A stretch of DNA of 42,817 nt, taken from NCBI GenBank assembly GCA_964403735.1, contig CAYOHN010000001.1:1-42817 (forward strand), written 5' to 3'. Under the pieces are notes generated by a model. It made no database searches and had not been told where the DNA came from. It saw only the letters and a list, made by a program, of their open reading frames with translations. Origin of the DNA: an uncultured Spirochaetales bacterium (GTDB taxonomy: Bacteria; Myxococcota_A; UBA9160; PR03). A program made the translations under genes and the position numbers. Below, one piece after another: positions 15,956 through 42,817 of this stretch; positions within the stretch are counted from its first letter, which is position 1; every line of letters begins with the position of its first letter.

Positions 15956-17029
15956 TCACGTCCGTCGCCCGGCCAACGCCTCGATGAGCTTTTCGCGCAG
16001 GCGATCCGGATCGACGGGCTTCTTGAAGATCACACCCTCGAGACCTTCCAGGCGGCTGCGTTTGATCACGTGATCACGGTCGTAGTGGAACGCAGTCATC
16101 ATCAGCACGGGCAGTTCCGGGAAGCGCTCGCGCACGGCCAGGAACAGCTCGTAGCCATCCATGTTCGGCATCACCACGTCGCTGAGCACGATGTCGATGC
16201 CGCCCTTCTCGAGCACGGCCAGCGCTTCGACGCCGTCGCCGGCGGTCTCGACGTGACAGCCCTCGCCAGTCAGCAGCTCGGCGAGCGACTTGCGGATGCC
16301 GAGGTCGTCGTCGGCGATCAGGATCCGCGCACCCGCCAGGCGGGGATCCGGCGCGTGGGCGCCGGGCTTGTGGGATCGCAGGTCCACCATGCGCGCGGGA
16401 CCGACGTATTGCACGGTCTCGTATTTTTCGCCGGCCGCCATCTCGCCGACCCGTTCGACGATCTCGGCGATCCGGGCGATCTCGCGCCGGATCGCATCGA
16501 TGCGCTCGGTCTCCACCGAGCAGTCGGCCTCGCCCGCCAGCCGATCGACGTCGCGCTCGAGCAGCTCGGCCTGGTTCAGGATCACGGCGAGCGGATTGTT
16601 GATCTCGTGCGACAGCCCGATCGCCACCTCACCGAGCGTCGCGAGCTGATCCTTCTGCAGGATCTCGCGCAGATCCTTGGCGAAGCCGATGGTGCCGTCC
16701 TCGCGACCGTGGTCGTCGTGGAGGAGCGTGCCAGAAATCGCCACCGGGATCTCTTCTCCGGTCTTCGACAGGAACGTGGTCCGGAGGTGAGCGGCGATGC
16801 CGCGCCCCCCGTGCTCGGGCCTCCGCATCGCGGACATCACGCGCCTGGCTTCGTCGAGGCTCGGATACAGCTTCGCGACGAAGTGCCCGAGGATCTCGTC
16901 CGGCCGATAGCCGAGAATCTGGCTCGCCCCGTCGTTGTAGTAGTCGACGACCCCCTTGCGGTCCGTCGCCACCACGATGTCCGTGGAGCTGGCGATCAAC
17001 TGCTCGAGTCGTTCCCGGGTGAGCGCCAT
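15956..17029 (-). CDS. PAS - HisKA(DHp) - receiver protein lacking an HATPase_c domain
   Basis: PAS (IVVATDRKGVVDYYNDGASQILGY..), H-box LSHEINNPLAVIL, then a ~70-aa linker runs straight into REC (ILIADDDLG..DIVLSDVVMPNMDG..VLMMTA..IFKKP). Start ATG 17029 has an upstream GAGGGCGGA. Confidence 0.85.
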   Translation of the reverse strand: MALTRERLEQLIASSTDIVVATDRKGVVDYYNDGASQILGYRPDEILGHFVAKLYPSLDEARRVMSAMRRPEHGGRGIAAHLRTTFLSKTGEEIPVAISGTLLHDDHGREDGTIGFAKDLREILQKDQLATLGEVAIGLSHEINNPLAVILNQAELLERDVDRLAGEADCSVETERIDAIRREIARIAEIVERVGEMAAGEKYETVQYVGPARMVDLRSHKPGAHAPDPRLAGARILIADDDLGIRKSLAELLTGEGCHVETAGDGVEALAVLEKGGIDIVLSDVVMPNMDGYELFLAVRERFPELPVLMMTAFHYDRDHVIKRSRLEGLEGVIFKKPVDPDRLREKLIEALAGRRT

Positions 17030-17063
17030 GGGTACTCGTCCGCCCTCGCTCGTGGTCTTCCGG

Positions 17064-18281
17064 TCAGTGGATTCCCTGGACCGCCAGCCAGCGCTCGGCG
17101 TCGATCGCCGCCATGCAGCCGGTCCCCGCGGCCGTGACGGCCTGCCGGTAGACCGGGTCCGTGGCGTCACCACACGCGAAGACGCCGTCGATGGACGTGT
17201 AGGTAGAACCGGGCTTCACGCGGATGTAGCCGACGTCGTCGGTCTCGAGCTGGTCGCGCACCAACGCCGTGTTCGGCTCGTGCCCGATCGCCACGAACAG
17301 CGCGCCGACGGCGAGCTCGCGGGTCTGGCCAGTCTTCACGTCCCGGATCCGCACGCCGGTGACGAACTCGTCGCCGAGCACCTCGTCCACCTCGGCGTTC
17401 CATGCGAACTCGATCTTCTCGCTCTTGCGCGCGCGCTCCGCCATGATCTTCGAGGCGCGCAGCTCGTCGCGGCGATGGATCAGGGTGACCTTCGGCGCAT
17501 AGCGCGCGAGGAACAGCGCCTCCTCCACCGCCGTGTCACCGCCGCCGACGACGGCCATGTCCTTGCCCTTGAACAGCGCGCCGTCGCAGGTGGCGCACGC
17601 TGACACGCCGCGGTTCGTCAGCCGCTCCTCGGACGGCAGGCCGAGCCACTTCGCCGACGCGCCGGTCGACAGGATCACCGCATCGGCGGTGAACGAGCGC
17701 TCGCTGGTCTCGATCCGGAAGGGCCGCTGCGCGAGATCGATCCGGGTCGCGTCTTCCTGGTAGACGCGCGCGCCGAAGCGCTCGGCCTGCTTCTGGAAGC
17801 GCTCCATCATGTCCGGCCCGGACAGCGCCTCGGGAAACCCGGGATAGTTCTCGACGTCCGTCGTGAGCATCAGTTGGCCACCGATCGCGAGACCGGCGAC
17901 GACGACCGGGTGCAGCTCCGCGCGCGCGGCGTAGAGCGCCGCCGTCCAGCCGGCGGGACCCGAGCCGACGATCACGAGCTTCACGTGCTCGGCCGCCGCG
18001 CCGCCGCCAGCACCCGGCCCGCCCCCATCGATCCCGAGCAGGCCGTCGAGCTGGCCGGTCTGGTCGAGCGCCGAGAGATCGTCGAAGCCGCCGACGTGGC
18101 GCTCGCCGATCCAGATCTGCGGCACCGTCCGCTGCCGACTGCGCTCGATCATCTCGTCGCGCCGATGGGGTTCTGCCTCGATGTCGATCTCGGTCCACTG
18201 CTGCCCCCTCGCCGCGAGCAGTCGCTTGGCCATGTCGCAGTACGGGCAGGACGGCTTCGAGTAGATCGTGATCTCGGGCAT
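17064..18281 (-). CDS. trxB: Glutaredoxin fused to a low-Mr thioredoxin-disulfide reductase
   Basis: N-terminal Grx fold with CPYC (ITIYSKPSCPYCDMAKRLL..TVPQIWIGERHVGGFDDL). A Gly-rich linker follows. Then TrxR with VIVGSGPAGWTAALYAAR, the redox centre ACATCDG, VVGGGDTAVEEA and FACGD. Confidence 0.9.
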   Translation of the reverse strand: MPEITIYSKPSCPYCDMAKRLLAARGQQWTEIDIEAEPHRRDEMIERSRQRTVPQIWIGERHVGGFDDLSALDQTGQLDGLLGIDGGGPGAGGGAAAEHVKLVIVGSGPAGWTAALYAARAELHPVVVAGLAIGGQLMLTTDVENYPGFPEALSGPDMMERFQKQAERFGARVYQEDATRIDLAQRPFRIETSERSFTADAVILSTGASAKWLGLPSEERLTNRGVSACATCDGALFKGKDMAVVGGGDTAVEEALFLARYAPKVTLIHRRDELRASKIMAERARKSEKIEFAWNAEVDEVLGDEFVTGVRIRDVKTGQTRELAVGALFVAIGHEPNTALVRDQLETDDVGYIRVKPGSTYTSIDGVFACGDATDPVYRQAVTAAGTGCMAAIDAERWLAVQGIH

Positions 18282-29144: not shown

Positions 29145-30160
29145 GGCAGCAGCTCTCCGGCTCCCAGCATGCGCTGCACTTCCTCGAGGCTCTTGCCCTC
29201 CTCGAAGATCTGCTGCTCGATCTGCTTCGTCAGCGATTCGATCTGCGGCGTAAAGCGGCGCGGATCCTGATCTTGCTGGCGATAGGCCTCTTCGACGCTG
29301 CTGCGGATCTGGCGCCGCGCAGTCTCCCGCTCCTCCGCCGTCACTTCGACGCCCGCCGGCACGCGTCCCTCGGAAAGGGCGCGGATCTGATCGTCCGACA
29401 GATTCAGACCCACCTGCGACGCGAACATCTGCCGCAGCCGCTGCTCCTGCGTCAGGCCGCTGCCGCGCACCTTCTCGGTTTCCCCGGAACGGATCATCCG
29501 GAACCGGCCGACCTGCGTCCCGTCGCGCTGATAGCTGCCGACGAGCTCGTTGCCGTCGGCGACGATGGTTTCGGTTCGATACTGGGTGCTGCCGTCCATC
29601 GATTCGGCGATGCCGCCGCCCAGCGAGTCGTCGCGCCGGAAGCGCGGCGTGCCGCCGGCATCCTCGATCGTCCAGTCCTCGCTGTACGTCAGCACCACGG
29701 CCGATCCGGCCGCCGCGGGGCCCGACGTCGATCGCCAGTTGCCGTCGCCATCGCCGCCCGACGAAGCGAGCGTCTCGATCTTGACGCCGCGCGAGTTCAC
29801 CTGGAGTCCGTTCCGGATGTCCGCGAGCTGCGCGTCGTTCGGCTCCCAGGCGGCGAGAACCCGCGACCGCCGATTGCCGCCGAGCGCTTCGAAGCGTCCC
29901 TCCTCACTGTCGAGGACGACGATCGGCCACTCGGTCCACTCGAGCTGGTCGCCCTGGCGGGCGAAGCGCCACACCCGGTCCTCCCAGCGCCACGCCTCGG
30001 GATTGTTCGACGCGGAGTCCTGGTAGTGCATCAGCACGTACCAGGTGCCCTCGAGATCGAGCGCCAGCACGGGGGACGCGGCGAGCGCCAGGGCGACGCC
30101 GGCGAGCAGCGCGCGGACGCGCCTCCGAGCGCGGACGGCGCGCGGGCGGACCGGGCCCAT
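29141..30160 (-). CDS. Secreted hypothetical protein (signal peptide, beta-rich middle, charged helical C-terminus)
   Basis: MGPVRPRAVRARRRVRALLAGVALALAASPVLALDLEG.. is a signal peptide. ATG 30160 overlaps the upstream stop (ATGA). No family recognised. Confidence 0.75.
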   Translation of the reverse strand: MGPVRPRAVRARRRVRALLAGVALALAASPVLALDLEGTWYVLMHYQDSASNNPEAWRWEDRVWRFARQGDQLEWTEWPIVVLDSEEGRFEALGGNRRSRVLAAWEPNDAQLADIRNGLQVNSRGVKIETLASSGGDGDGNWRSTSGPAAAGSAVVLTYSEDWTIEDAGGTPRFRRDDSLGGGIAESMDGSTQYRTETIVADGNELVGSYQRDGTQVGRFRMIRSGETEKVRGSGLTQEQRLRQMFASQVGLNLSDDQIRALSEGRVPAGVEVTAEERETARRQIRSSVEEAYRQQDQDPRRFTPQIESLTKQIEQQIFEEGKSLEEVQRMLGAGELLP

Positions 30161-31830
30161 CAGATCCTCCGCTCCACGTGCGGGAAGCTGCGCCACACCG
30201 GCACTCCGCAGAAATGGCTGCCCTCGGTGCAGCGCGGGCGCACGAGGCCGTTGCGCACGAAACACGGGGGGCCGACGTGGCGCACCAGCTCCGGGTGCAC
30301 GTCCCGCACCTGCGCCAGCTCGTCCATCGACGCCTCGTAGATCTCGCGCTGCGCGTTGAGGCAGGTGCGCATCGTCCACTTGTGGAGCAGGTGCAACAGC
30401 GAACCCGACTCCTCGAAACGAACCGCCAGCGCATTCGGCAACACGTAGAGCGCCTGCTGCGGAGACACGCCGAGCGCCGACAGGCGCGCCCGGGCATCCC
30501 ACGCCGCCTCGACGGCCTCCTGGAACCTCGCGTGGCAGGCCGGGTCTTCGCGGATCAGCTCGGGTTCGACGACGTCCACGGCGGCGGGCACCGTGCGCGA
30601 GAGCAGCGGCCGCGACCCAGGCACCATCCGGTGTCGCTGATCCTGGGAGTCCGCCGTGTGCGAGAGCTTCTTGCGGAAGCTGTAGTGGGCGTGCTCGAGC
30701 GCACGCAGGATCGGTGCGTGGGTCGAGACGTTCAGCGTGTCGAGACGGTGCGGATTGCGGGCGGGATCGAGCGCCAATGCCAGCGCCTCGGCGTCGCCGA
30801 GGTCCGCGCGGCCGAGCACGTGGCGCACGGCATCCGCGACCACCTGCGGCGCCCGGGCGCCCCAATCCACCAACAACGCGCGGCGGCCGCCCAGCGACGC
30901 GTCGAACGCGGCGAGCGCTTCCCCGTCGCCGACTCCGGCCGGCGCGACGTGAGTCTCGACGACGTCCTCCTCGCGGAGCGCCGGATCCCCGATCTCGGAG
31001 AAGAACGCCGGGTCCACGCGCTCGACCGCGGCCAGCATCCGGCCGACGACGTCGCGAGCCTCGTCCGGCGCGTCGCAGGTGGCGGCCATGCGCCGGAGCC
31101 GGTGCAGCACCAGACCCGATACGGTGTAGACCATCGCCGTCTGCGTCGCGAGCGGAAGCACGTAGCGCGCGGTTTCGATCGCCTTCTTCTCGGCTTCCTT
31201 CGCGACGTTTTTGCCGAACGCCTCGTTCTTGCGCTGATCGAGCCGCCAGAGGTCCGAGAGGATCCCGCGCGTGAGGGGCGTCAGCCGCCGCGTCAGCTCG
31301 CGGTACGCACCCCAGGCTCGGGACACCGCCGCGACGTACACGGCTCGCGCTTCGCCGCCGAGCTCCGGCGGCACGTGGGCCCGTGCTTCGTCGAGCCGGA
31401 CGTATCGCTGACTCTGCTGCTCGGTGTTGTAGAACGGGAACGCGTGCAGGAAGCACCACACGAGCTGGCGCGAGATCCCGGACAGCGAGAACTCGAAGGT
31501 CGCGTGTTGGTAGACGGTGTGGTGGCCGCCCTGGAAGGTCAGCGGACCGATGTTGCGGCGCTGGCGGGGCGTGATCTCGTCGGCCTCGATCACGCGCGGC
31601 GAATAGCAGGTGCGCGCCGCGGCAATCGCGTCGTCGTACGGGCGCTCGAACCAGTTCCGGAGTCGGACCTCGGCGCCGCCGTCGACGACCGGGAAGGCCC
31701 CGGTCGCGTCGGACGACGCAGCGGATCGCCCGGTCGCGCGGTCGTCGGACGCGCGTGGGTCGATCGGCCGGTCGTCGACCGGCCGGTCGTCTACCGCGTG
31801 CTGGCCGATCGCGCGGGGGAGGGTGGTCAA
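30160..31830 (-). CDS. thyX: Tandem-domain ThyX-like (FAD-dependent thymidylate synthase family) protein
   Basis: 556 aa. The first half carries TEQQSQRYV (the S-x-R-Y part of the ThyX motif) without RHR. The second half carries SQDQRHRMVPGS (the RHR part). TTG start 31830 has GGAG 6 nt upstream. Confidence 0.55.
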   Translation of the reverse strand: MTTLPRAIGQHAVDDRPVDDRPIDPRASDDRATGRSAASSDATGAFPVVDGGAEVRLRNWFERPYDDAIAAARTCYSPRVIEADEITPRQRRNIGPLTFQGGHHTVYQHATFEFSLSGISRQLVWCFLHAFPFYNTEQQSQRYVRLDEARAHVPPELGGEARAVYVAAVSRAWGAYRELTRRLTPLTRGILSDLWRLDQRKNEAFGKNVAKEAEKKAIETARYVLPLATQTAMVYTVSGLVLHRLRRMAATCDAPDEARDVVGRMLAAVERVDPAFFSEIGDPALREEDVVETHVAPAGVGDGEALAAFDASLGGRRALLVDWGARAPQVVADAVRHVLGRADLGDAEALALALDPARNPHRLDTLNVSTHAPILRALEHAHYSFRKKLSHTADSQDQRHRMVPGSRPLLSRTVPAAVDVVEPELIREDPACHARFQEAVEAAWDARARLSALGVSPQQALYVLPNALAVRFEESGSLLHLLHKWTMRTCLNAQREIYEASMDELAQVRDVHPELVRHVGPPCFVRNGLVRPRCTEGSHFCGVPVWRSFPHVERRI

Positions 31831-31941
31831 CCGAAGCTCCGTGGGTGGATCGCGGTACTCTGGCAGAGGCCCACCGCAGCAGCAACGACCTCCCGGCGAC
31901 GCGAGCGAGTGCAGCCGCGAGGGGCGCTGAATTGCTCATTT

Positions 31942-31956
31942 TGGACAGCGCTTTGC
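31942..31956 (+). promoter_or_regulatory. Weaker -24/-12 (sigma-54-like) element
   Basis: TGGACAGCGCTTTGC has GG-N10-GC spacing. 15 of 20 positions are identical to the consensus-quality element 149 bp downstream. Both are followed by CCCT. Confidence 0.35.
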
Positions 31957-32090: not shown

Positions 32091-32105
32091 TGGCACGTGG
32101 TTTGC
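32091..32105 (+). promoter_or_regulatory. Sigma-54 (-24/-12) promoter upstream of the EBP-like/kinase operon
   Basis: TGGCACGTGGTTTGC fits TGGCACG-N4-TTGC exactly. GG is at 32092-93 and GC at 32104-05 (N10). Confidence 0.7.
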
Positions 32106-32206: not shown

Positions 32207-34240
32207 TTGGCGGCGAGCTTCTGGATCTTGCATCGCGACCCGCGCTGGCGCGAGGCGCTTCGGCGCCTCGTCGGAGGCGCTCCGCTGCTCGGCGACCCGG
32301 CCGATCCGAGCGCGCTGGCCGACGCGCCGCGGCCGCAGGCGATCCTGCTCGGCGCGAGCGGTGACTTCGAGGCGGAGCTGGCTTGGGCGCACCGCGTGGC
32401 GTCTCGCGGATCTCGGAGCCCATTGGCGGACGCCGGCGGCCCCGCCGACGGCGCGCCGCCGTTGTGGCTGGTCCTCGTCGAGCCGCGCGATGTGGCGGAG
32501 GCGCGGCGCCTGTTCGACGGGCTGCCCGCCGACGTGCTCGCCGTTTCCGGGGACCTCGCGGAGCTGCGGGCGACGCTGCGCGCGGCGTTGGCGCGCCGCC
32601 GCGCGGCGGCGCTCTCCGAGCGCCGCCAGCGCGATCGGTTGCAGGCGCGCTTCTCGCGCTGGCTCGGAGACCTCGACGCACCGGAGCTGCTGGCGGCCAT
32701 CGATCCGGCGCGGCGCGCGCTGCCGCTGCTGATCCGCGGAGAACCGGGGACCGGGCGCGGCCTGCTCGCTCGCTATCTCCACCTCCAGGCCGGCACGGGC
32801 GGTGACGCAGGGGGCTGCTTCGCGAGCCTTTCCTGTGGACCGGACCTCGAAGCCGGGCCGCTGCTCGCCGGGATCGTCCCCGAGGTGGGAAACCCGAGCG
32901 CCGCGCAGTCGCTGACCCTCTGCGTCGAGGACGCCGACGCGCTCGCGCCGGCGGTGCAGCGGAGGCTGGCGCACTGGATCGAGAACGGGCCTCCGCCGGG
33001 CCTGCTCCGCGGTTCGCCGTTGCGCTGGATGGCCACTGCGGGAGATCCCGTCCGCGACGAGCGGCTCGAGCCAGACCTCGCGCGCGCGCTGGCCGGACTC
33101 TTCGTGCGCATCCCGCCGCTGCGCGACCGGCTCGAAGCGGTGAAGCGGATCGCAGAGGAGACGGCGCAGGAATGGATCGCGCTGCGCGGGGGCCAGCCGG
33201 AAGCTCGGAGTGCCGCGCGCTTTGCAGACGACGCCCTCGCCGCCCTGCACTCCCATGCATGGCCCGGGAACGCACGCGAACTCGAGGCCGTCGTCCGGCG
33301 CACGCTCGCCACGACGCGTCGGGATCCGGTTCGCGCGGCCGATCTGGTGTTCGACGCACTCGTGGTGGGGCCACTCGGGATCCAGCATGACGCGCCGGAT
33401 GGCGCGTATGACGCAGACGGGAGTTACTTTGACGCAAGCGTCATGACCGATCCCGCAGCGACCCCCGCCGATGACGCACCGCCGCCTGCCGCGTCGGATC
33501 CGACCGAGCCCACCGCGAACGGATCTCCTGCCCGGGGACCGCACGACCGGGGACCGTACGACGTCCGGGCGAGCGTCGACGCCCCTTTTCGCCGGCTCGC
33601 CGGCGCCGTCGCTCACGAAGTCGGCAACCCGCTCGTCGGAATTCGCACCTTTGCGCAGATGCTGCCGAGCCGCTTCGACGACCCCGAGTTCCGCGAGCAG
33701 TTTGCCGCCCGGGTCGAAGCGGATACTCGCCGCATCGAAGCCGTCGTCGACACGCTGGCGCGGCTCGGCTCGCTGCCCCCGCCGGCGCGAACCGCCGTCG
33801 ACGTCTCGGGGCTGATCGCCCGGCTGCTCCAGCTCCAGCGGCCGCGGATCCAGGAAGGGCGACTCGTCGTGCTCGAAGAGCTCGACCGGGAGTCTCCGCA
33901 CGCGCTGGGCGATGCCGAGCAGCTGCGGTTTGCGCTCGGGCTGTTGCTCGAAGAGGCGCTGGCTTCGCTCGCCGCGTCTTCGCTCGCCGAGCCGGGAGAT
34001 CTCTACGTCGCGACGACGCATCAACCGGCAACCGCTGCGGGTGGCGACGCCCGGCTGCGGATTCTCGTGCGCTCGCGCGGCGGTCCGCGCCAGGCCGTGG
34101 ACGTGGGACTGCGGGCGAGCGAGAACACGCTCGCCGTCGCGGCCGTCGAGGCGATCGTCCGCGCGCACGATGGCTCGCTCACCGTCGAGACCGGCGTCCC
34201 CGGCGAGACGCTGGTCCTGATCGAGCTGCCGGCGCCGTAG
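32207..34240 (+). CDS. Fusion protein: receiver-like N-terminus + degenerate sigma-54-activator AAA+ domain + HisKA + degenerate HATPase_c
   Basis: The AAA+ part has LLIRGEPGTGRG (Walker A Lys replaced by Arg), LCVEDAD in place of LFLDE, no GAFTGA, and AWPGNARELE. It is followed by the H-box AVAHEVGNPLVGIRTF. The C-terminal CA-like region lacks the N-box Asn (LLLEEAL) and the G1/G2 boxes. Start moved to TTG 32207 because listed start 32072 lies upstream of the promoter. Confidence 0.75.
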   Translation: MAASFWILHRDPRWREALRRLVGGAPLLGDPADPSALADAPRPQAILLGASGDFEAELAWAHRVASRGSRSPLADAGGPADGAPPLWLVLVEPRDVAEARRLFDGLPADVLAVSGDLAELRATLRAALARRRAAALSERRQRDRLQARFSRWLGDLDAPELLAAIDPARRALPLLIRGEPGTGRGLLARYLHLQAGTGGDAGGCFASLSCGPDLEAGPLLAGIVPEVGNPSAAQSLTLCVEDADALAPAVQRRLAHWIENGPPPGLLRGSPLRWMATAGDPVRDERLEPDLARALAGLFVRIPPLRDRLEAVKRIAEETAQEWIALRGGQPEARSAARFADDALAALHSHAWPGNARELEAVVRRTLATTRRDPVRAADLVFDALVVGPLGIQHDAPDGAYDADGSYFDASVMTDPAATPADDAPPPAASDPTEPTANGSPARGPHDRGPYDVRASVDAPFRRLAGAVAHEVGNPLVGIRTFAQMLPSRFDDPEFREQFAARVEADTRRIEAVVDTLARLGSLPPPARTAVDVSGLIARLLQLQRPRIQEGRLVVLEELDRESPHALGDAEQLRFALGLLLEEALASLAASSLAEPGDLYVATTHQPATAAGGDARLRILVRSRGGPRQAVDVGLRASENTLAVAAVEAIVRAHDGSLTVETGVPGETLVLIELPAP

Positions 34241-34363: not shown

Positions 34364-35776
34364 ATGAGCCGGATCCTGGTCGTCGACGATGAGCAAGGCG
34401 TGCGGGAGTCCCTGCGCCTGCTGCTGAAGGACGAGCACGAGGTCGCCGCCGTCGGCAGCGTCGACGAGGCCCTGCGCGCGCTCGACGAGCAGGCGGCGGA
34501 CCTGGTGCTGCTGGACCTCGTCATGCCGGGCCGCAGCGGCCTCGAGCTGTTGCGCGAGTTCGCCGAGCGCGGCGAGGGCCCGCCGGTGGTCATGGTCTCG
34601 GCGACGCGCGCCATCCCGGCCGCCGTCGAGGCGATGAAGCTCGGCGCGGTGGACTTCGTGACGAAGCCGTTCGAGGTCGACGCGCTGCGCATCAAGGTGC
34701 GGCAGATCCTCGAACACCGCGAGCTCGAGCGAGAGGTGGTGCGGCTGCGCGACGAGATCGCCGAGCGCTCGCGCTTCGGGCGACTGATCGGCCGCAGCGA
34801 CGCGATGCGCGCAGTGTACCGGACCATCGAGCGGGTCGCGGAGGCGCGCGCGAACGTGCTGATCACCGGAGAGAGCGGAACCGGCAAGGAACTCGTCGCC
34901 CGCGCGATCCACGAGTTGGGGCCGCGACGCGACGCGCCGCTGGTCGTCGTCAACTGCGCGGCGATTCCCGAGACGCTGATGGAGAGCGAGCTCTTCGGCC
35001 ACGAGCGGGGCTCGTTCACCGACGCCCGCGAACGCAGGATCGGCAAGTTCGAAGCGGCGAACGGCGGGACGCTCTTTCTCGACGAGATCGCCGAGCTTCC
35101 GCTCGGCGTCCAGGCGAAGCTGCTGCGAGCACTGCAGGAGCGCAGCGTCGAGCGGGTCGGGTCGAACCTTTCGATTCCCGTGGACGTGCGGGTGCTTGCG
35201 GCGACCAACCAGGATCTCGAGCGGGCGGTCGCCGCTGGCCGGTTCCGCCCGGACCTGTTCTATCGGATCCACGTGGTGCCGATCGCGCTGCCGCCGCTGC
35301 GCGATCGCCGCGAGGACATCCGGCTGCTGGCCGAGACCTTCCTCGCGCGCGCGCGCGCCGATGCCGACCGCGGTCCGTCGCGGATCGCCGCCGCGGCCGC
35401 CGCCGCGCTCGAACGCCATTCGTGGCCCGGCAACGTCCGCGAACTCGAGAATGCGATCGAACGCGCGGTCGCGCTGGCCGATGGAGACGTCCTCGAGCTG
35501 ACCGATCTGCCCGACGAGATTCAGCAGGCCGCTCGGCACGAGGGATTGCGCGACGAGGTCCGCGCCGGCCGCGTCGATCTCGAAACCGCCGTCGCCCGCT
35601 TCGAGGGCGAGCTGCTCCGCGAGACGCTGCTGCGGACCGGGGGCAACCAGACCCGGGCGGCCGAACGGCTCGGGATCACGCGGCGCGTGCTGAAGCTCAA
35701 GATGGACCGCTACGGTCTCGCGTCTTCCCCAGGCGGCGAGAGCGATGCGAACGAGTTCGCAAAGCTGGAGCTCTGA
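34364..35776 (+). CDS. NtrC-family sigma-54-dependent response regulator (REC + AAA+ + Fis-type HTH)
   Basis: ILVVDDEQGVRE..LVLLDLVMPG..FVTKPF; LITGESGTGKE; GSFTDA in the GAFTGA position; TLFLDEI; SWPGNVRELEN; HTH GGNQTRAAERLGITRRVLKLKMDRYGL. Confidence 0.9.
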   Translation: MSRILVVDDEQGVRESLRLLLKDEHEVAAVGSVDEALRALDEQAADLVLLDLVMPGRSGLELLREFAERGEGPPVVMVSATRAIPAAVEAMKLGAVDFVTKPFEVDALRIKVRQILEHRELEREVVRLRDEIAERSRFGRLIGRSDAMRAVYRTIERVAEARANVLITGESGTGKELVARAIHELGPRRDAPLVVVNCAAIPETLMESELFGHERGSFTDARERRIGKFEAANGGTLFLDEIAELPLGVQAKLLRALQERSVERVGSNLSIPVDVRVLAATNQDLERAVAAGRFRPDLFYRIHVVPIALPPLRDRREDIRLLAETFLARARADADRGPSRIAAAAAAALERHSWPGNVRELENAIERAVALADGDVLELTDLPDEIQQAARHEGLRDEVRAGRVDLETAVARFEGELLRETLLRTGGNQTRAAERLGITRRVLKLKMDRYGLASSPGGESDANEFAKLEL

Positions 35777-35793
35777 CGGCCGAAGGCCCTGCC

Positions 35794-35927
35794 GTTCCTA
35801 CCGTTCTTGTCGTTCCGATCGGAACAGTTCCATTTCCAGAATGAAATCGGATACTTGGAACGGATCTGGCGGGCCGGGCGTTCGCGTCGGAACGTTTCCG
35901 GCGCCGCGCAGCGAGCGGCACCGGAAC
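35794..35927. promoter_or_regulatory. Cluster of GTTCC/GGAAC half-sites and palindromes (candidate enhancer/UAS)
   Basis: GTTCCGATCGGAAC is a perfect 14-bp palindrome at 35812-35825 and overlaps GGAACAGTTCC at 35821-35831. CGGAA-CGT-TTCCG is at 35888-35900. Extra GGAAC occur at 35857 and 35923, and GTTCC at 35794. The cluster lies 60-190 bp upstream of the -24 element. Confidence 0.5.
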
Positions 35928-35982
35928 GAAAAATCATCGATCGGTCGGGCCCTTGCGGGCGATCTAGAGGATCGCCGGCGGC

Positions 35983-35997
35983 TGGCATGTGTTTTGC
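35983..35997 (+). promoter_or_regulatory. Sigma-54 (-24/-12) promoter upstream of the HD-GYP/PilZ operon
   Basis: TGGCATGTGTTTTGC has GG at 35984-85, N10, and GC at 35996-97. GGAGG at 36032-36036 and GTG 36043 follow. Confidence 0.75.
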
Positions 35998-36042
35998 GAT
36001 CGCGTCGAGAGGCTCGCGAGGCCAACCCCCCGGAGGCTTCCC

Positions 36043-37254
36043 GTGATCGACCGATGCCAGCCGCGAGCCACCGTGCTCGTCGTCGACGACGAGCGTGGCC
36101 CGCGCGAGTCTCTCCGCATGATCCTGTCCCCGGTCTACCGCGTGCTCGCGGTCACGACCGGCAGCGAAGCCGTCGAGGTGCTGCGCACGACTCCGGTGGA
36201 TGTCGTAACGCTGGACCTGGCGATGCCGGGCCTGCGCGGCGCCGAGCTGATCCGCCTGGTCCGCGGCGAGTTCCCCGATGTCGAGCTGATCGTCATCACG
36301 GGGCACGGAACGCTCGAGTCGGCCACCGAAGGCATCCGCTGGGGCATCGCCGACTATCTCCAGAAGCCGTTCGACGTGATGCAGGTGACGGCGGCGGTCT
36401 ATCGGGCGCTGGCGCGGAGGAGGGGCCGCTGCCGGCTCGTGAGCTTCCTCGAAGAACTCGGCGACACGGTGGGGCGCGACGCCGACGTCGCGAACATCCT
36501 GGCGCGCGTCGAAGACAGCTCGGACCTGCGCGGCCGGCTCGGCGAACTCCTCGCCAAGCAGGTCGGGGATCCGGCGCCGGCGGACTGCTTCGACCCGGAC
36601 CGCGTGCTGCCGTTCTTCGAGGTGCTCGCGCAGGCCGGCGAGGCCCAGGATCCCTACCAGCGCGGCCATGGGCGACGCGTCGCGTTCTTCGCCACGCTGC
36701 TCGCCGACCGCCTGTGTCTGTCGGCGGAGCAGAAGCGCAACACGCGCATCGCGGCGTTCCTGCACGACATCGGCAAGATCGGCGTCCCGGCCGAAGTGCT
36801 CGCGCGGCGCGGGGAGCTGGCCGAACCGGAGCGGCGGATCATCGAACGCCACTGCGAGATCGGCGGGCGCCTGCTCGAGCCGCTCGGACTCAGCGCAGAG
36901 ATCGTCGGCGCAGTCCGCCATCACCACGAGCGCTGGGACGGCTGTGGCTATCCCGACGGACTCGCCGGAGAAGCGATCCCGCTCGGCGCACGGATCGTGC
37001 AGATCGCCGACGCGTTCGACGCGATGACGACGGACCGTCCCTGGCGCTGCGCGCGGACGCAGGCCGCAGCGATCGGCGAGCTGCGCCGCGAAGCGGATGG
37101 CCAGTTCGACCCGACGCTGGCCAAGGAGTTCGCCGTCCTCCTCGAGAGCGGCGTGTGCGACATGGACATCGAACGCGTGGCCGACGCGATGGCAACCGCC
37201 AGCGCGGCCACGCGGGTCTCGGCTGCGCCGTCGGCGTTGCGAAGGGCAGGATGA
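36043..37254 (+). CDS. Response regulator with an HD-GYP domain (candidate c-di-GMP phosphodiesterase)
   Basis: REC: TVLVVDDERG..VVTLDLAMPG..VITGHG..YLQKPF. HD-GYP: AAFLHDIGKIGVP, HHERWDGCGYPDG, IADAFDAMTTDRP. Start is GTG 36043. Listed ATG 35989 sits inside the promoter. Confidence 0.85.
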   Translation: MIDRCQPRATVLVVDDERGPRESLRMILSPVYRVLAVTTGSEAVEVLRTTPVDVVTLDLAMPGLRGAELIRLVRGEFPDVELIVITGHGTLESATEGIRWGIADYLQKPFDVMQVTAAVYRALARRRGRCRLVSFLEELGDTVGRDADVANILARVEDSSDLRGRLGELLAKQVGDPAPADCFDPDRVLPFFEVLAQAGEAQDPYQRGHGRRVAFFATLLADRLCLSAEQKRNTRIAAFLHDIGKIGVPAEVLARRGELAEPERRIIERHCEIGGRLLEPLGLSAEIVGAVRHHHERWDGCGYPDGLAGEAIPLGARIVQIADAFDAMTTDRPWRCARTQAAAIGELRREADGQFDPTLAKEFAVLLESGVCDMDIERVADAMATASAATRVSAAPSALRRAG

Positions 37255-37775
37255 GCAGAGGGGGGCAACCGATGCGCGGAGCAGGGGGCCAGCTCGCGTT
37301 CGATTTCGGGGGGAACGCGAGCGCCGGTAGGCCGCGTCCCGTGCGCAAGGTGCGACGGGACGATGCCGTGCGACTGGTGGAGTACGCACCGTTTCCGCGG
37401 ATCCAGAGGGATTCGCGCTGGCGGCACGGCTTCACGCTCGACCTTTCGTCGCGGGGCCTGTGTGTCCGGACGAAGGACGTCGCGCCGGTGGGCTCCTGGC
37501 TTCGCATCATCCTTCGCAGCGTCGACGGACAGCCGACTCTCGATTGCGTCGCCCGGGTGGCGTGGTCCGAGGATCGGGGCGGATCCCCGCGCATGGGCCT
37601 CGAGGTCATCGAACGGAAGGGGCCCCTGCGCGTACGCCGGGATCTCCCGGTTCCCGCGGCGTCGCCGTCGCGACGCGAGCACTCGGACTCCGCGCCGCGC
37701 GCCATCGCGCCGCCGCTCGCGCTCGTGCACCGCAGCCGCATCGACGCGGGCGCGCCGGCGGCCGTTGCCTCCTGA
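37251..37775 (+). CDS. PilZ-like domain protein
   Basis: RKVRRDDAVR (RxxxR-type) followed about 25 aa later by DLSSRGLCV (DxSxxG). ATG 37251 overlaps the HD-GYP stop (ATGA). In frame with listed ORF 35745..37775. Confidence 0.65.
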   Translation: MSRGGQPMRGAGGQLAFDFGGNASAGRPRPVRKVRRDDAVRLVEYAPFPRIQRDSRWRHGFTLDLSSRGLCVRTKDVAPVGSWLRIILRSVDGQPTLDCVARVAWSEDRGGSPRMGLEVIERKGPLRVRRDLPVPAASPSRREHSDSAPRAIAPPLALVHRSRIDAGAPAAVAS

Positions 37776-37854
37776 TCGCTGCGGCCGCTGGATCGTTCCC
37801 TCACCTCGCCGGACGCATTCGACCGGCCGCCGCGGATGGCTGCCGGCGCCGCGA

Positions 37855-38742
37855 TCAGCGGATCGCGCGGCTCGAGAGGACGCGGGCCACTTCGTTCCCT
37901 TCGTCGTCGGTCGTCGAGAGGATCGTGACGTTGACGCTTTCCGGATCGAGGACCTGACTTCCCCCGTCGACGAGCGAAAATGACACCGCAACCTCTTGGA
38001 AATCCCCGCGGCCCAGCACGGCAACGGACGCGCGCCCAGGCGCCGTCTCCTCCCACCAGGAAACCTTCTGCCTCGTCCGAGACCCGGGCGACGCCGTCAC
38101 GTCCTCGATCTCGATCACGCCGGGGGGATAGTCCAGGTCCAGCTCGAGCGCGGAGACGGGGCTGTCGAGTCGCAGGATCAGCTGCGGATGCTGCTCCAAC
38201 AACAGCTTCGCGAGTTCGAGGGTGTCGAAGAAATTGCCGTTGATGATCGCTCTCCATGGCGTCGGCGCGCCGACTGAATCGACCGTCGCGTCGCAGTCGA
38301 AGTCGAGCTCGTGCGGGAGGATCGAGAGCACGCCGTCGTACGGAATCTCCTCCTCCTGCTCGAACCCGGCCGTGTCCCGGAAGCGGCGAAGGACCTCGAT
38401 CGAGTACGTGCCGCTGTCCACATCCTGAGGAACGTCGACGAGCGAGACGATCTGCACGTCCCCGCCGATGAGATTGGAGGGAAAGCCCACTTGAATCGAC
38501 GACGTCGCCCGCGTGAGCAGCTCGGTTTCGGTCCCGCGCAGCCGGTAGACCAGCTCGCCGCGCTGCGGATCTTCCACCAGGTCGCTCCCGAACCCGATGA
38601 CGGGCATGCCGCTGGTCTGATCTCCCGTGAGTGGGATGATCACGCTTGCTCCCGCCTGCGCTTGCAAGGGGACTGGAGGGCCGCCACAAGCAATCATCGA
38701 TGTCACGAAGACAGCGAGCAGTCCTAGGGGAAACCAGCGCAT
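37855..38742 (-). CDS. Hypothetical lipoprotein
   Basis: MRWFPLGLLAVFVTSMIAC has a lipobox-like MIAC. AAGAGGAGAG lies just upstream of ATG 38742. No family recognised. Confidence 0.75.
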   Translation of the reverse strand: MRWFPLGLLAVFVTSMIACGGPPVPLQAQAGASVIIPLTGDQTSGMPVIGFGSDLVEDPQRGELVYRLRGTETELLTRATSSIQVGFPSNLIGGDVQIVSLVDVPQDVDSGTYSIEVLRRFRDTAGFEQEEEIPYDGVLSILPHELDFDCDATVDSVGAPTPWRAIINGNFFDTLELAKLLLEQHPQLILRLDSPVSALELDLDYPPGVIEIEDVTASPGSRTRQKVSWWEETAPGRASVAVLGRGDFQEVAVSFSLVDGGSQVLDPESVNVTILSTTDDEGNEVARVLSSRAIR

Positions 38743-38839
38743 CGTTCTCTCCTCTTGCCGGCCGCGAGTGCTCGATCCGCGGCCCGACGTTTCTTGTCAC
38801 TTTCGTGCGACGCATTCTCGTCGCTACCACGCGCTTGCC

Positions 38840-40350
38840 TCACGGTGCGCCCGTGGCTGCGCGCGCCCGGCCGAGAATCCGCATCGCGTCGCCGATCGTA
38901 ATGCTTCCGTCCTCGTCCTCGTCGGCGCCGAGCTCGGCGATCGTCCGGTTCTGGCCGGTGAGTGCTGGGAGCACGCTGGGATCGCGCGTGATTCGCAGGC
39001 TCACCAGCGCGTCGGCCGCTCCGATCCGGCCATTGGGCCGCCCGAGCGGCGCCACGTCGCCGGGCTTGCCGGGGTGGTCGAGGGGGTTCAGCGGATCCGT
39101 GCCGAAGTTCGCCTCGCCGTCGGCGAAGCCGTCCCTGTCGAGGTCCCAAGCAGCGGGCAGCCGCGCCAGCGTTACGAGACCGCCAAAGCCGTCGATGAAG
39201 CGATCGCCGTCGCTGTCGACGCCGAGCGAGTCGAGCGCCACCGAGATCTCGAACGCATCCGGGAGGCCATCGCCGTCGTCGTCGTCGTCGCGCGCGTCGC
39301 CGACGCCGTTGCCGTCCGTGTCGACGATCTCGGCCGCGTCTAGGTGGAACGCGTCGAACCCGTTCACGACGCCATCCCCGTCGGCATCCGGGTCGAAGTT
39401 GTCGTCTACGCCGTCGAGGTCCCGATCGATCAGGAACGCCGACGCCACCGCCGGCGCCCCCGGCGTCGTCACCAGCGCGCGCAGCGCCAGCGCCACGATC
39501 AGCGGATCGCCGTCCCAGACGAGGCCCGCGAGGAAGCGCCCGTCGCGCAGCAGCTCGTTCTGGAACCCGACGTTCGCGCGCCCACTCCGGTGCAGCGCCG
39601 CCAGCCGCGCCGCCAGCTCGAGCGTCGGCGTCGCCGCCGTGATCGCGCTCTCGAGCAGCCCGAGGCTCGGTGCCAGCGAGGCGGGGCTCGCCTTGTCGAC
39701 GAGCGCCCGAACGATCTCCGCCGTCGTCGCGAGGTCGCTGGAGCCCGCGCTCGACGGAATCCCGTCCCCGGACCAGCCGCCATCCGCGCGCCGGCGCAGG
39801 ATCACCGAGCCGGCCAGCATCCCGAGCTCCGGCTGCGGCGGAAGCTGCTGCGCCACGCCGAGCGCATCGAGCGCCAACGCCGTGTCGTACGCACTCGGCC
39901 CCGCCGGTCCGACGAGACCCCAGCCGGCGGTCCCGTTGCGCAGCCCCGCGAGCGCCTCCGCCTCGACGTCCGCCGACACCCCCGCCGCTTCGAGCGCCCG
40001 CACCCGCCGCGCCTGGAAGTCCACCGCAGCCAGCTCCTGCTGCCGAAGCCACGCGATCCCGCGCCGCACCACCACCCCGTTGCGCTCGGCCCCCTGGAGC
40101 GAGAGCGCCGCAATCACCTCCGCCGTCACCAGCGGCCGCGTCGGACCCGACCCCCAAGACCCATCCCCGTTCTGCGCCCGCCCGAACCAAATCACCGCAT
40201 CCCGCACCGCCTGCTCCCGGGGCTTGGCCTCGGCGGCGGGCGCCAAGGCGGCGAGCACCAAGAGGGCCGCGGCGGACGCTGCCAGTAACACCACAACGAG
40301 ACAGCGCGGGCTCGTGCGGCTCGTGAATCGTTCCTGGCTTTGGTCCGGCA
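38840..40350 (-). CDS. Secreted protein: prenyltransferase/terpene-cyclase-like repeats + thrombospondin type-3-like Ca-binding repeats + dockerin-like pair
   Basis: Signal/TM VVVLLAASAAALLVLAALAPAAEA. QNGDGSWG and ADGGWSG repeats. DRDLDGVDDNFDPDADGDGVVNGFD, DTDGNGVGDARDDDDDGDGLPD, DSDGDRFIDGF, DLDRDGFADGE. C-terminal GDVAPLGRPNGRIGAADALVSL and DEDGSITIGDAMRIL. ATG 40350 (MPDQSQE). Confidence 0.75.
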
Positions 40351-40359
40351 TCTTGATCT

Positions 40360-41340
40360 CCTCATCGCCCCGGTCGATCCTCACTGCCTGTCTCGCCAGC
40401 CTTGATCTCTCTCGACCGTCTCGGGTTCTTCCTGACACTTCCGTTCCTCTGTTCTCGCGACCCGATATCCGTTCGAAAATTTTCTTGCGTACCACCGGAG
40501 AACTGCACTGTCGCCGCCAATCCAATCTGGCGCCTTCTTCTCGAAGAGTCGCGGACTGTTTGCGCCGCTCGTCTGCAGGCGAAACCTCGCGTCGCGGGCG
40601 ACTCCGATGACAGAGAACAGATCTCGGACAGTGCTCGCCACGACAGCGCCAGACGCTTCATTCCAGATCGAATCGACGCTGAATTGCACCCGAAGAATCA
40701 CGTTCTTGCGATCAGCCGGCTCGCAATAGGAAAGATTCCTCCCTTCAAAGAACTCAGATATCACGCCACGCATCTGTTCGGACCAGCTTGTGCGGGGAAT
40801 GTCCAAGAAGAGCCGACAGCGATCCTCGGAGCCTCCTTCTGCTCGTTCAATGCGAATCATTGCCCGTGACTCTGGATGCCGAATCGTTACCGTTCCCCCG
40901 TTTTCCTTCACGGTAATAAGGCAGTGAACCCAATAGGAGAAATCCTCAGCACTCACGAATCCGATCAGATACCTGCGAACGCGCTGAAACAGCCATCCCG
41001 CACCCAGAAGTAGAAGTACGAAGGCAACTAGCCGCATCAGTCGAACCGATCAAGCAGAACCGGGATTGTCTCGTCAAACGTGGATATGAGTCCCGATATC
41101 TGACCGACTCGGAACCCGACTACGCCCGCCGGAGATCGGGTTACGGACTGGCCGCCAAGGTTGAACGACGCACCGTCGTCGAACCCCTTCTGAAAGTTGA
41201 AGCCGAACTCACTGAGTGCAGCCTGCCTCGACGGATCCCTCACGAACTGCGAAACACGGTTGGCCCCAGCCACCGCCGTGGCCAAAGCAACGTTACGGTT
41301 TACGACGAATCTCGCCCCGACCTGAGTCAGAAGGTTGTTG
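40360..41340. other. Low-GC tract covering the immunity-like ORF and the last ~100 codons of the Rhs gene
   Basis: Hand counts of G+C per 60 nt: 32 (40441-40500), 30 (40681-40740), 32 (41281-41340). Compare 42 (41341-41400) and 47 (39001-39060). Confidence 0.7.
40381..41037 (-). CDS. Putative cognate immunity protein of the Rhs C-terminal toxin (N-terminal TM anchor)
   Basis: 218-aa ORF whose ATG (41037-41035) overlaps the Rhs stop (41039-41037) as ATGA. N-terminal helix MRLVAFVLLLLGAGWLF. Low GC. No family recognised. The function is inferred from position only. Confidence 0.55.
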   Translation of the reverse strand: MRLVAFVLLLLGAGWLFQRVRRYLIGFVSAEDFSYWVHCLITVKENGGTVTIRHPESRAMIRIERAEGGSEDRCRLFLDIPRTSWSEQMRGVISEFFEGRNLSYCEPADRKNVILRVQFSVDSIWNEASGAVVASTVRDLFSVIGVARDARFRLQTSGANSPRLFEKKAPDWIGGDSAVLRWYARKFSNGYRVARTEERKCQEEPETVERDQGWRDRQ

Positions 41341-42817
41341 ACACCCGTCGACGTGACCGCGCCGGCAAGAGGGGCGAGCACGGGAAGGTTCGAAGCCTGG
41401 AACGCCGCGAACGCGGCCGGGGTTCCGGCGAGGCCGAGCGGCGCCGCGACCACCGCGGCTGAGTTCACCGGGTTGAAGTTGCACCTGCGGGCGCCGCACG
41501 GCCGCTGGGGGTCGAGCAGTGCGACGGGGTTCGGGTCGAACTGCGGCCTCGAGAAACCTGATCCCGCGCCGCTTCCGAGACCTCCTACCGTCGACGGTGC
41601 ACCAGAGGCCAAGCTGATGCTGCTCGATCCTCCGAACCCGCTCCCACCCGCCGGGAACGAGAACCCGAAGTCCCCCGCGATCGAGAACGGATCGAGCCCG
41701 GTCGGGTCGACGAAGCGGTAGGGGTTGTTCGCCGCGTACGCGTACGTCGCCACCGCCGCGATCCCAAGTGGGTCGGGCTGGAGGAAGGCGCCGATCCGCG
41801 GGTCGTAGTGGCGGGCGCCCATGTGGACGAGGCCGCTCGCGCCCTCGCTGAGCATGCCGGCGAAGCGGCGCTCGGTCGGGGCGCTGCCGCTCGCTTGGAT
41901 CTGCTCGCCGAACGCCGCGTAGCGGACACTCGCGCGCGTCGTCGCGAGCGCGCCGCCGGGTGCGGCGTCGACGCGCGCCATGCGCACGACGTTCCCCGCG
42001 GCGTCGCCGAGCAGGCTCCACAGCACCGGCGCCTGCGCCGACGGGCCCGCCGACACCTCCGCCACCACGCCCCCGGGTCCGGGGCCCGGGATCCAGCGCA
42101 CCGTCTCGGCCGCCTGGCCCTGCGCGTCGACGCCGCGCAGCTCCATGAGGCCCGCGAGGAACAGCGTCGTCTCGCTCGCCGCCGAGGCCGTCAGCCACTC
42201 GGTGCGCCGGATCCGGTTGCCCAGCGGGTCGTACTCGAGGGTCAGTCGATAGCCCGTCGTGAGATTGAGCACCGCCGTGAGGCGCCCGAGGCCGTCGTAG
42301 GCGTAGCCGGTGAAGACGTTGGCGGCCACATCGACCTTCACTTGGCGGCGGCCGGCGGAGTCGTAGCTGAACTGCTCCTCGACCACGTCGTCCGAGACCC
42401 GCCGCGTCTCCTCGAGCTCGTCGGCGGCGTCGACGACGAAGCGGCGGTTGAAGCCCCTCTTGTGGCGCGTGCGGTTGCCGTCGCGGTCGTAGTCGAACTC
42501 TTCGTTCGGGCCGGTCTGGTACGTGGCCCCCTTGACTCGGCTGCGCCCGTCGAACACCGGCCGGGTGATGCCTTCCGGGAAGTCGATGCGGAGGGGATTG
42601 CCCAGCTCGTCGTAGTTGTTGTAGTCCACCGTCTCGTCCGCAAGCCCCGGATACGAGTACGCGATGTCGTCGACCCAGCCCTCCGGCCGATACGTCGTCG
42701 CCGCCCGCACGCCGCGCGGATCGAGCCGATCCGCCAGCCGGCCCGCCCCGTCCCACGCGAAGCCCCACGACCACATCCGGTCCTGGCCGGGGGCGGCGAA
42801 GGTGCCGGTGTCGTGGA
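41037..42817 (-). CDS. Rhs/YD-repeat protein, C-terminal part (N-terminus beyond the right edge), with an unassigned C-terminal toxin tip
   Basis: YD-type repeats (YDELGNPL, YDRDGNR, YDSAGRR, YDGLGRL, YDPLGNR). Core end GARHYDPRIGAFLQPDPLG ... NNPYRFVDPTGL. The reading frame stays open upstream of listed M1 to position 42817. Confidence 0.9.
   Translation of the reverse strand, partial: HDTGTFAAPGQDRMWSWGFAWDGAGRLADRLDPRGVRAATTYRPEGWVDDIAYSYPGLADETVDYNNYDELGNPLRIDFPEGITRPVFDGRSRVKGATYQTGPNEEFDYDRDGNRTRHKRGFNRRFVVDAADELEETRRVSDDVVEEQFSYDSAGRRQVKVDVAANVFTGYAYDGLGRLTAVLNLTTGYRLTLEYDPLGNRIRRTEWLTASAASETTLFLAGLMELRGVDAQGQAAETVRWIPGPGPGGVVAEVSAGPSAQAPVLWSLLGDAAGNVVRMARVDAAPGGALATTRASVRYAAFGEQIQASGSAPTERRFAGMLSEGASGLVHMGARHYDPRIGAFLQPDPLGIAAVATYAYAANNPYRFVDPTGLDPFSIAGDFGFSFPAGGSGFGGSSSISLASGAPSTVGGLGSGAGSGFSRPQFDPNPVALLDPQRPCGARRCNFNPVNSAAVVAAPLGLAGTPAAFAAFQASNLPVLAPLAGAVTSTGVNNLLTQVGARFVVNRNVALATAVAGANRVSQFVRDPSRQAALSEFGFNFQKGFDDGASFNLGGQSVTRSPAGVVGFRVGQISGLISTFDETIPVLLDRFD

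Follow-up and report, generated by a model that had tools for sequence, protein, structure and literature searches.

A predicted sigma-54-dependent enhancer promoter upstream of a REC-HD-GYP/PilZ gene pair in an uncultivated Myxococcota lineage

What controls the genes for a predicted cyclic dinucleotide phosphodiesterase and for a predicted receptor of cyclic diguanylate (c-di-GMP) that stand side by side in an uncultivated Myxococcota lineage? The question is raised by contig CAYOHN010000001.1 (assembly GCA_964403735.1), from which a stretch of 42,817 nucleotides with 70% GC was analysed (the 42.8-kb window). It encodes a response regulator with a receiver (REC) and an HD-GYP domain, followed by a PilZ gene and preceded by the gene of an NtrC-type activator. 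A first-pass annotation had proposed a sigma-54 promoter with palindromic enhancers, whose target is the REC-HD-GYP/PilZ pair, and this core proposal survives comparative testing. We consider it likely that the 266-bp region between the activator and HD-GYP genes is an enhancer-dependent sigma-54 promoter for both genes, with the adjacent activator acting on the palindromes. No description of this system was found in the literature.

Predicted sigma-54 promoter upstream of the REC-HD-GYP gene

The predicted sigma-54 promoter TGGCATGTGTTTTGC is located at positions 35983-35997 of the forward strand, with the GG of the -24 element at 35984-85 and the GC of the -12 element at 35996-97. The spacing between GG and GC is exactly N10, and the sequence differs by one mismatch (C to T) from TGGCAC-N5-TTGC. 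The GTG start codon of the HD-GYP gene (36043) lies 46 nt past the C of the -12 GC and is preceded by a GGAGG Shine-Dalgarno sequence (36032-36036), which confirms the promoter geometry given in the first-pass annotation. Exact copies of TGGCAY-N5-TTGC occur twice on the two strands of the window, against 0.04 expected, and two copies were reached in none of 100 shuffles. Both are intergenic and co-oriented with the gene downstream.

For comparison, 12 orthologous loci were picked solely by the similarity of the HD-GYP protein (93-59% identity); its orthologues in Myxococcota metagenome bins span 93% to below 60% identity. All 12 loci possess (T/C)GGCAY-N5-TTGC, 34-46 nt before the HD-GYP start codon. 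They also share a gene order, consisting of thyX (minus strand), a HisKA/AAA-lid protein, the enhancer-binding protein (EBP, the activator), REC-HD-GYP, PilZ, tatA and tatC. At each locus examined, the activator gene stands directly upstream and is conserved together with the palindromes and the promoter. A MAFFT alignment of nine intergenic regions, with a mean identity of 59%, revealed invariant columns on both GTTC/GAAC sites, on CTTG twice, and on TGGCA and TTGC. The promoter and the palindromes stand out as conserved islands, while the remaining intergenic sequence has diverged.

In a reverse test, metagenome contigs were searched with nothing but the DNA pattern palindrome-N(145-175)-promoter. 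The scan returned 120 stretches, including at least 19 further EBP/HD-GYP/PilZ loci, whose HD-GYP proteins are in some cases as little as about 48% identical. Being selected on palindrome and promoter, these loci were used only for features outside the search pattern. A scan of genome contigs with the HD-GYP protein was swamped by matches to the generic HHERWDG motif and yielded only paralogues, none above 41% identity, and a metagenome scan with the PilZ protein alone retrieved no relatives.

Transcription is predicted to start near 36009, which would leave a 5′ untranslated region (UTR) at 36009-36042 of the forward strand. This putative leader holds the conserved sequence CGCGAGGC (36015-36022) in addition to the Shine-Dalgarno sequence, and its CGCG columns are invariant in the nine aligned regions, as is the start codon. 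A scan of 35600-38100 found no sigma-70-like promoter, and no riboswitch or other Rfam family was detected for the 5′ UTR or the genes in the same interval. An 11-nt perfect inverted repeat (35978-35988/36054-36064) was taken as a chance occurrence, as it is not conserved and its first arm lies 5′ of the predicted start.

Palindromic candidate activator sites

Two palindromic sites were found upstream of the promoter. The first upstream activating sequence, UAS1 (GTTCCGATCGGAAC, 35812-35825), is a perfect 14-bp palindrome centred at about -190 from the predicted start, and it is the sole GTTCC-N4-GGAAC without mismatch in the window. UAS1 is present with 0-1 mismatch in nine protein-selected loci, its centre at -165 to -168 from the -24 GG, and its GTTC/GAAC columns are invariant. 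The second site, UAS2 (GTTCGCGTCGGAAC, 35880-35893), is centred at about -122, at a distance of 68 bp from UAS1, and has one mismatch to the palindrome, being one of four such copies in the window. UAS2 is kept at -96 to -100 from the -24 GG in the clade with two sites, where the columns CGT.C....GAAC are invariant. Three more distant orthologous loci possess a single palindrome only, at about -110 from the -24 GG. The mismatch of the best palindrome averages 0.45 per locus, compared with 3.07 in shuffled intergenic regions.

Seven GGAAC/GTTCC pentamers are concentrated in 35794-35927, within at most 140 bp, against a background of 2.5 per kb; the maximum per 140 bp across 300 dinucleotide shuffles was 5, and usually 3. 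The repeats GGAACAGTTCC (35821-35831), which overlaps the 14-bp palindrome, and CGGAACGTTTCCG (35888-35900) belong to the same stretch. The AT-richer stretch described earlier, with the palindrome overlapping a second repeat, is thus present, with a GC content of 0.61 across 35700-35909 compared with 0.70 in the whole window. The element CGGAA-N3-TTCCG proposed alongside it also exists, but it merely overlaps UAS2, which is the conserved second site. Likewise, the additional GGAAC half-sites are there, but their conservation among orthologues is only sporadic.

IHF-like elements

Two elements similar to the binding core of integration host factor (IHF) were found around UAS2. The core used is the E. 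coli consensus WATCAR-N4-TTR, which may not apply to Myxococcota. Element A (AATCGGATACTTG, 35845-35857, forward strand) has one mismatch and lies midway between UAS1 and UAS2, at about -158. Of 24 loci, 15 have it with up to two mismatches on the same strand, at an offset of +18 to +21 from UAS1, and its TTG columns are invariant in the alignment. Element B (GGTCGGGCCCTTG, 35943-35955, forward strand), at about -60, retains CTTG; an A-tract is located near it at 35927-35935. With up to two mismatches, element B is present in 13 of the 24 loci at -42 to -39 from TGGCA, and CTTG is invariant. Matches to the core are almost absent outside these two offsets in the 24 loci, which are phylogenetically related. 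A bend between the palindromes could bring two activator dimers together.

The NtrC-type activator

The gene directly upstream (34364-35776, forward strand) encodes an NtrC-type EBP with the organisation REC-AAA+-HTH_8. Its open reading frame (ORF) is open from GTG 34259, and the conserved start is ATG 34364. The protein matches the Pfam families Sigma54_activat (PF00158, 4.6e-72, 241.6 bits), Response_reg (PF00072, 2.1e-28, 99 bits) and HTH_8 (PF02954, 1.9e-12, 47 bits), and also AAA_lid_14 (PF25601). Its nearest NCBIfam models are AtoC, NtrC and a PEP-CTERM regulator, all below the equivalog cut-offs. The receiver residues DD, D, T and K are intact, as are the Walker A (GESGTGKE) and Walker B (FLDEI) motifs, RVLAATN and the arginine finger of the AAA+ domain; all of them are conserved in 19 orthologues. 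The recognition helix of the helix-turn-helix (HTH), ITRRxLKLKMDR, is also conserved among orthologues.

A second sigma-54 promoter, TGGCACGTGGTTTGC (32091-32105, forward strand), matches the consensus exactly and lies about 100 nt before the gene of the HisKA/AAA-lid protein, hence before the operon that contains the activator gene. It is kept as TGGCAC-N5-(A/T)TTGC(C/G) in 13 of 14 orthologous loci. Because of this conserved exact consensus promoter, the activator would not be constitutive, and its operon would itself be sigma-54 dependent through another activator. Upstream of it, no GTTCC-N4-GGAAC was found in any locus examined. Autoregulation through this motif was therefore rejected, and the arrangement points to two tiers of sigma-54 control and not to simple autoregulation.

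The conserved promoter, the palindromes and the conserved HTH support the earlier suggestion that the geometry is typical of enhancers on which the NtrC-type activator encoded next to them would act. Adjacency and co-conservation suggest that this activator binds the palindromes. Several observations weigh against the overall reading of an enhancer-dependent sigma-54 promoter. The GAFTGA loop of the activator is GSFTDA, with two departures from the canonical motif, in which Phe and Thr are kept; orthologues possess GAFTDA in most cases and GAFTGA in three, the Asp at position 5 being typical of the clade. The distance between the palindromes, 68-71 bp or about 6.5 turns of the helix, does not resemble that of NtrC sites, which lie close together and in phase. 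Element B of the window itself is degenerate, with three mismatches to the IHF core. Autoregulation is not evident, as the absence of the palindrome from the 32091 promoter indicates. No rpoN, ihfA or ihfB gene is located in the 42.8-kb window, so their presence in the genome is assumed from knowledge of Myxococcota. Finally, the palindrome is invariant among orthologues, and there is consequently no covariation tying it to the adjacent activator.

The last point also bears on an alternative in which the promoter is sigma-54 dependent, but the palindromes are operators of another protein, such as a repressor, a c-di-GMP-responsive factor or another Myxococcota EBP, and the adjacent activator acts elsewhere. 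The spacing of 69 bp, atypical for cooperative EBP dimers, is compatible with this alternative, and the activator's own promoter without the palindrome implies at least one other input. Nonetheless, the activator gene, palindromes and promoter were found together at every locus, and the positions at about -120 and -190 are typical of enhancers and not of repressor operators overlapping a promoter. Moreover, the recognition helix of the activator is conserved, the neighbouring HisKA protein has no HTH, and the cluster conserves no other DNA-binding gene. We therefore regard a different binder as unlikely.

The REC-HD-GYP enzyme and the PilZ protein

The gene at 36043-37254 (forward strand) encodes a REC-HD-GYP response regulator, as the first-pass annotation had recognised, of the RpfG type of phosphodiesterases; the Pfam matches are HD_5 (PF13487, 2.6e-39, 135 bits) and Response_reg (1.1e-22). 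The HD-GYP motifs LHDIGK, HHHERWDGCGYP and IADAFDAM are present. More than 6900 homologues were found, and the orthologues in Myxococcota metagenome-assembled genomes are annotated as RpfG-family proteins.

The PilZ gene (37272-37775, forward strand) encodes a single-domain protein, which is a predicted c-di-GMP receptor. The PilZ-like assignment made earlier passed the profile search (PF07238, 1.1e-9), with a score of 38.9 bits where the cut-off is 22.5. The motifs RKVRR (RxxxR) and DLSSRG (DxSxxG) lie 27 residues apart, and both are invariant in 20 orthologues. The protein also has a sub-threshold match to TIGR02266, a Myxococcus paralogous PilZ family. The PilZ start in most orthologues is the Met equivalent to ATG 37272, and the gene of the closest relative is called there. 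This codon lies 18 nt past the HD-GYP stop and 6 nt after the Shine-Dalgarno sequence GAGGGGGG. The coupling through ATGA that had been proposed does exist as an overlap at 37251-37254, by way of the alternative in-frame PilZ start ATG 37251, but it is not conserved, orthologues mostly starting at the equivalent of 37272. The HD-GYP and PilZ genes are tightly linked and are likely co-transcribed.

A pairing of degradation and reception of a single messenger depends on the substrate of the HD-GYP protein. Its nearest solved relatives are V-cGAP3 (5z7c), PmGH (4mcw) and PA4781. The fourth residue of the guanine-recognition motif Rxx(K/R) is reported to separate c-di-GMP-type HD-GYP proteins from enzymes with RxxQ/N, which are selective for cyclic GMP-AMP (cGAMP) (bioRxiv 10.1101/600031). 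This motif is RPWR in the window and RPYR or RPWR in the orthologues matched, and by that signature the protein is predicted to be a c-di-GMP-type enzyme. It might instead act on 3′,3′-cGAMP or another cyclic dinucleotide, in which case the operon would not couple degradation and reception of one messenger. The closest solved relative by sequence, 5z7c (E 1.3e-35), is indeed a V. cholerae cGAMP phosphodiesterase, and Myxococcus uses cGAMP and possesses PmxA, a cGAMP-selective HD-GYP protein of the RxxQ/N class in M. xanthus (bioRxiv 10.1101/600031). Nevertheless, the residue at the selectivity position is the canonical Arg of RxxR, and the PilZ protein paired with the enzyme has canonical c-di-GMP motifs, which makes a different substrate improbable. 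Since both substrates can be hydrolysed by enzymes with the canonical RxxR, the matter is one of degree, and the signature reduces the ambiguity between cGAMP and c-di-GMP without removing it.

The HisKA/pseudo-EBP protein

The activator operon begins with a gene (32207-34240, forward strand) that encodes a hybrid of a HisKA protein and a pseudo-EBP. It matches AAA_lid_14, HisKA and, weakly, Sigma54_activ_2 in Pfam; no HATPase_c and no HTH were found. The N-terminus is similar to a receiver in which the acceptor Asp is missing, and thus a pseudo-receiver. The AAA+ domain is of the EBP type, has GTGR(G) for GTGK in Walker A (Lys to Arg) and possesses no GAFTGA loop. In the dimerisation and histidine phosphotransfer (DHp) domain, the H-box HE(V/I)(G/R)NPL is intact. 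The C-terminal domain aligns to kinase catalytic domains, with the N, G1 and G2 boxes absent. Profile matches in the PDB correspond to EBP AAA+ domains and to the cores of ZraS, KinB, DivL and RetS.

The search for relatives of this protein returned 148 sequences, all vaguely annotated and all from Myxococcota-type bins. Among the 120 inspected, the change from Lys to Arg was found in all common Walker A variants, and a GAFTGA-like motif in none. This uncharacterised, lineage-restricted family is the most unusual item of the locus. Towards both REC proteins it is a candidate phosphodonor or phosphatase; it may also be a phosphotransferase, or may regulate the EBP encoded next to it.

The receivers of the activator (34364-34750) and of the HD-GYP protein (36043-36420) are 39% identical, and their alpha-1 segments are nearly identical (VVDDEQGVRESLRLLL in the activator, VVDDERGPRESLRMIL in the HD-GYP protein). 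The match in alpha-1 hints at a common phosphodonor for both receivers.

Proposed regulatory circuit

In the circuit that we propose, sigma-54 RNA polymerase would be held in a closed complex on TGGCAT-N5-TTGC at 35983-35997, and the NtrC-type regulator encoded just upstream would be phosphorylated at its receiver Asp. Phosphorylated dimers would occupy the two GTTCC-N4-GGAAC palindromes near -190 and -122, form an active AAA+ ring and contact the polymerase by DNA looping. IHF-type bends, one between the palindromes and the other between UAS2 and the promoter, would probably assist the looping. The open complex would then produce a transcript from near 36009 for the REC-HD-GYP phosphodiesterase and the small PilZ c-di-GMP receptor. 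Expression of the activator and of the atypical HisKA protein from the second sigma-54 promoter at 32091 would make the circuit a layered one. Since the alpha-1 segment of the HD-GYP receiver is nearly identical to that of the activator, one phosphorylation input may both induce and activate the HD-GYP enzyme, and thereby act as a feed-forward signal. We infer the sigma-54 dependence, the palindrome-binding protein, the role of IHF, the transcription start, the shared phosphodonor, and the enzyme and ligand specificities from sequence features and their conservation.

A reading in which the palindromes work in the RNA, or form hairpins at which transcription of the activator gene terminates, is very improbable and was rejected. 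A simple scan does flag 35812-35825 as a stem of 5 bp with a loop of 4 nt, followed by AGTTCCATTT, but the stem is just 5 bp long, the T-run behind it is short and lacks conservation, and the arms keep their sequence (GTTC/GAAC invariant) without compensatory change. A second copy also follows 69 bp further on, its spacing to the promoter being constant, and the scan itself is uninformative, with two terminator-like sites against 0.9 expected.

A broader view of the locus joins these elements in a lineage-specific, self-contained cassette, in which a dead EBP-like AAA+/DHp protein gates a true EBP and the REC-HD-GYP enzyme, resulting in two-tier, feed-forward sigma-54 control of c-di-GMP. In such a cassette, the HisKA/pseudo-EBP protein would be a ChpT-like phosphotransferase, a phosphatase or a poisoning subunit, and there may be an ancestral tie to the adjacent export genes tatA-tatC. 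We hold this combined view to be unlikely.

Candidate targets at other loci

Further members of the regulon were searched for among the non-orthologous matches of the pattern in metagenomes. No convincing second target was found among them, and most were low-GC chance matches. The pair L172/L209, a single locus adjacent to gidA in an unrelated high-GC lineage, was rejected as a second target, as no EBP is encoded nearby. At this locus (L172:3093-3345, and L209 on the reverse strand), GTTCCACGTGGAAC is located about 165 nt before a conserved sigma-54-like GGCACAC-N4-TTGCA. The two elements lie divergent from gidA and precede the gene of a protein that is rich in Gly, Ser and Thr and has a membrane anchor at its C-terminus. 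Locus L100 was also rejected; its EBP is 45% identical to the activator, but the HTH helix is different.

Other features of the window

Upstream of the activator operon, the intergenic region between thyX and the HisKA gene (31856-31955) possesses a conserved ACTCTGGCAGAG that adjoins the thyX start and is common to close relatives. A conserved sigma-54-like sequence of the GG-N10-GC type, TTTGGACAGCGCTTTGCC (31939-31956), is also common to close relatives. The ThyX (Thy1) protein encoded at 30160-31830 on the minus strand has about 510-570 aa, with two Pfam Thy1 stretches, and is about twice the usual length; the long form is present in all relatives. A gene at 15956-17215 (minus strand) encodes a PAS-HisKA-REC protein in which no HATPase_c is detectable, and there is no room for it between HisKA (200-258) and REC (298-410); it is a further kinase-like product of the contig in which the catalytic domain is missing.

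Downstream, homology to the closest relative stops exactly at the PilZ stop codon (37775). Wherever the sequence of a relative reaches far enough, PilZ is followed by tatA-tatC, which are absent from the contig of the window. From 37776 to 42817, minus-strand ORFs without Pfam matches (37855-38796 and 38840-40657) and a gene for an RHS-repeat protein (41037-42776) stand where every relative has tatA, tatC and the genes of a nucleoside hydrolase and an acetyl-CoA carboxylase. The break in synteny with all relatives at 37775/37776 may reflect inserted or rearranged DNA, or a join made during assembly.

In the relatives, a TAnnnT hexamer (TAACTT, TAGATT, TAAAGT and similar) is located 25-45 nt before tatA in 11 of the 11 examined (L081-L089, L210-L212). 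Because this hexamer is conserved in the spacer between PilZ and tatA, tatA-tatC probably have their own sigma-70-type promoter. The -10-like hexamer weakens the case that the sigma-54 operon must include tatA-tatC.

Comparison with known systems

The locus provides a precisely mapped cis-regulatory architecture, in which a -24/-12 promoter is combined with a pair of palindromes and a pair of candidate bend sites, and it allows the probable DNA motif GTTCC-N4-GGAAC to be assigned to an uncharacterised NtrC-family regulator of uncultivated Myxococcota. The predicted circuit would place a two-component/sigma-54 input upstream of a pair of c-di-GMP eraser and reader, whereas in the better-known cases the order is the opposite and an EBP is controlled by c-di-GMP. 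The understanding of sigma-54 regulation and of c-di-GMP signalling is not changed by this locus; it represents an ordinary kind of control circuit, and its value is that of a clean, conserved example.

Similar to NtrC and the glnAp2 promoter of enteric bacteria, and to other promoters of group I bacterial EBPs, the locus possesses an activator of the type REC-AAA+-Fis-type HTH, two dyad-symmetric sites upstream of a GG-N10-GC promoter at a distance of over 100 bp, and an activator gene that adjoins its target. In contrast to NtrC/glnAp2, the site sequence is GTTCC-N4-GGAAC, and the sites are 68-71 bp apart (at about -122 and -190), compared with about 32 bp. An IHF-like element lies between the two sites, and the loop of the activator is GSFTDA or GAFTDA instead of GAFTGA. 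The targets also differ, being cyclic-dinucleotide signalling genes in the window and nitrogen assimilation in NtrC/glnAp2.

The Klebsiella nifH promoter with NifA and the Pseudomonas putida Pu promoter with XylR share with the locus a fixed WATCAR-N4-TTR-like element between the enhancer and -24/-12, which is consistent with looping assisted by a bend. The window differs from them in two predicted IHF-like elements, one of which lies between the enhancer sites, and the proximal one is degenerate.

The HD-GYP protein resembles Xanthomonas RpfG, P. aeruginosa PA4781 and Persephonella PmGH in the combination of REC and HD-GYP domains and in the HD, HHExxDGxGYP and Rxx(K/R) motifs. RpfG is reported to work with PilZ-domain adaptors. 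Unlike in these RpfG types, the HD-GYP gene of the window is paired with a PilZ gene behind a predicted sigma-54 enhancer promoter, in uncultivated Myxococcota.

FleQ, VpsR and Nla24/EpsI of M. xanthus also join EBP/sigma-54 machinery to c-di-GMP signalling. In those systems c-di-GMP binds the EBP, whereas in the locus described here a phosphorylation-controlled EBP is predicted to control the expression of the c-di-GMP eraser and reader.

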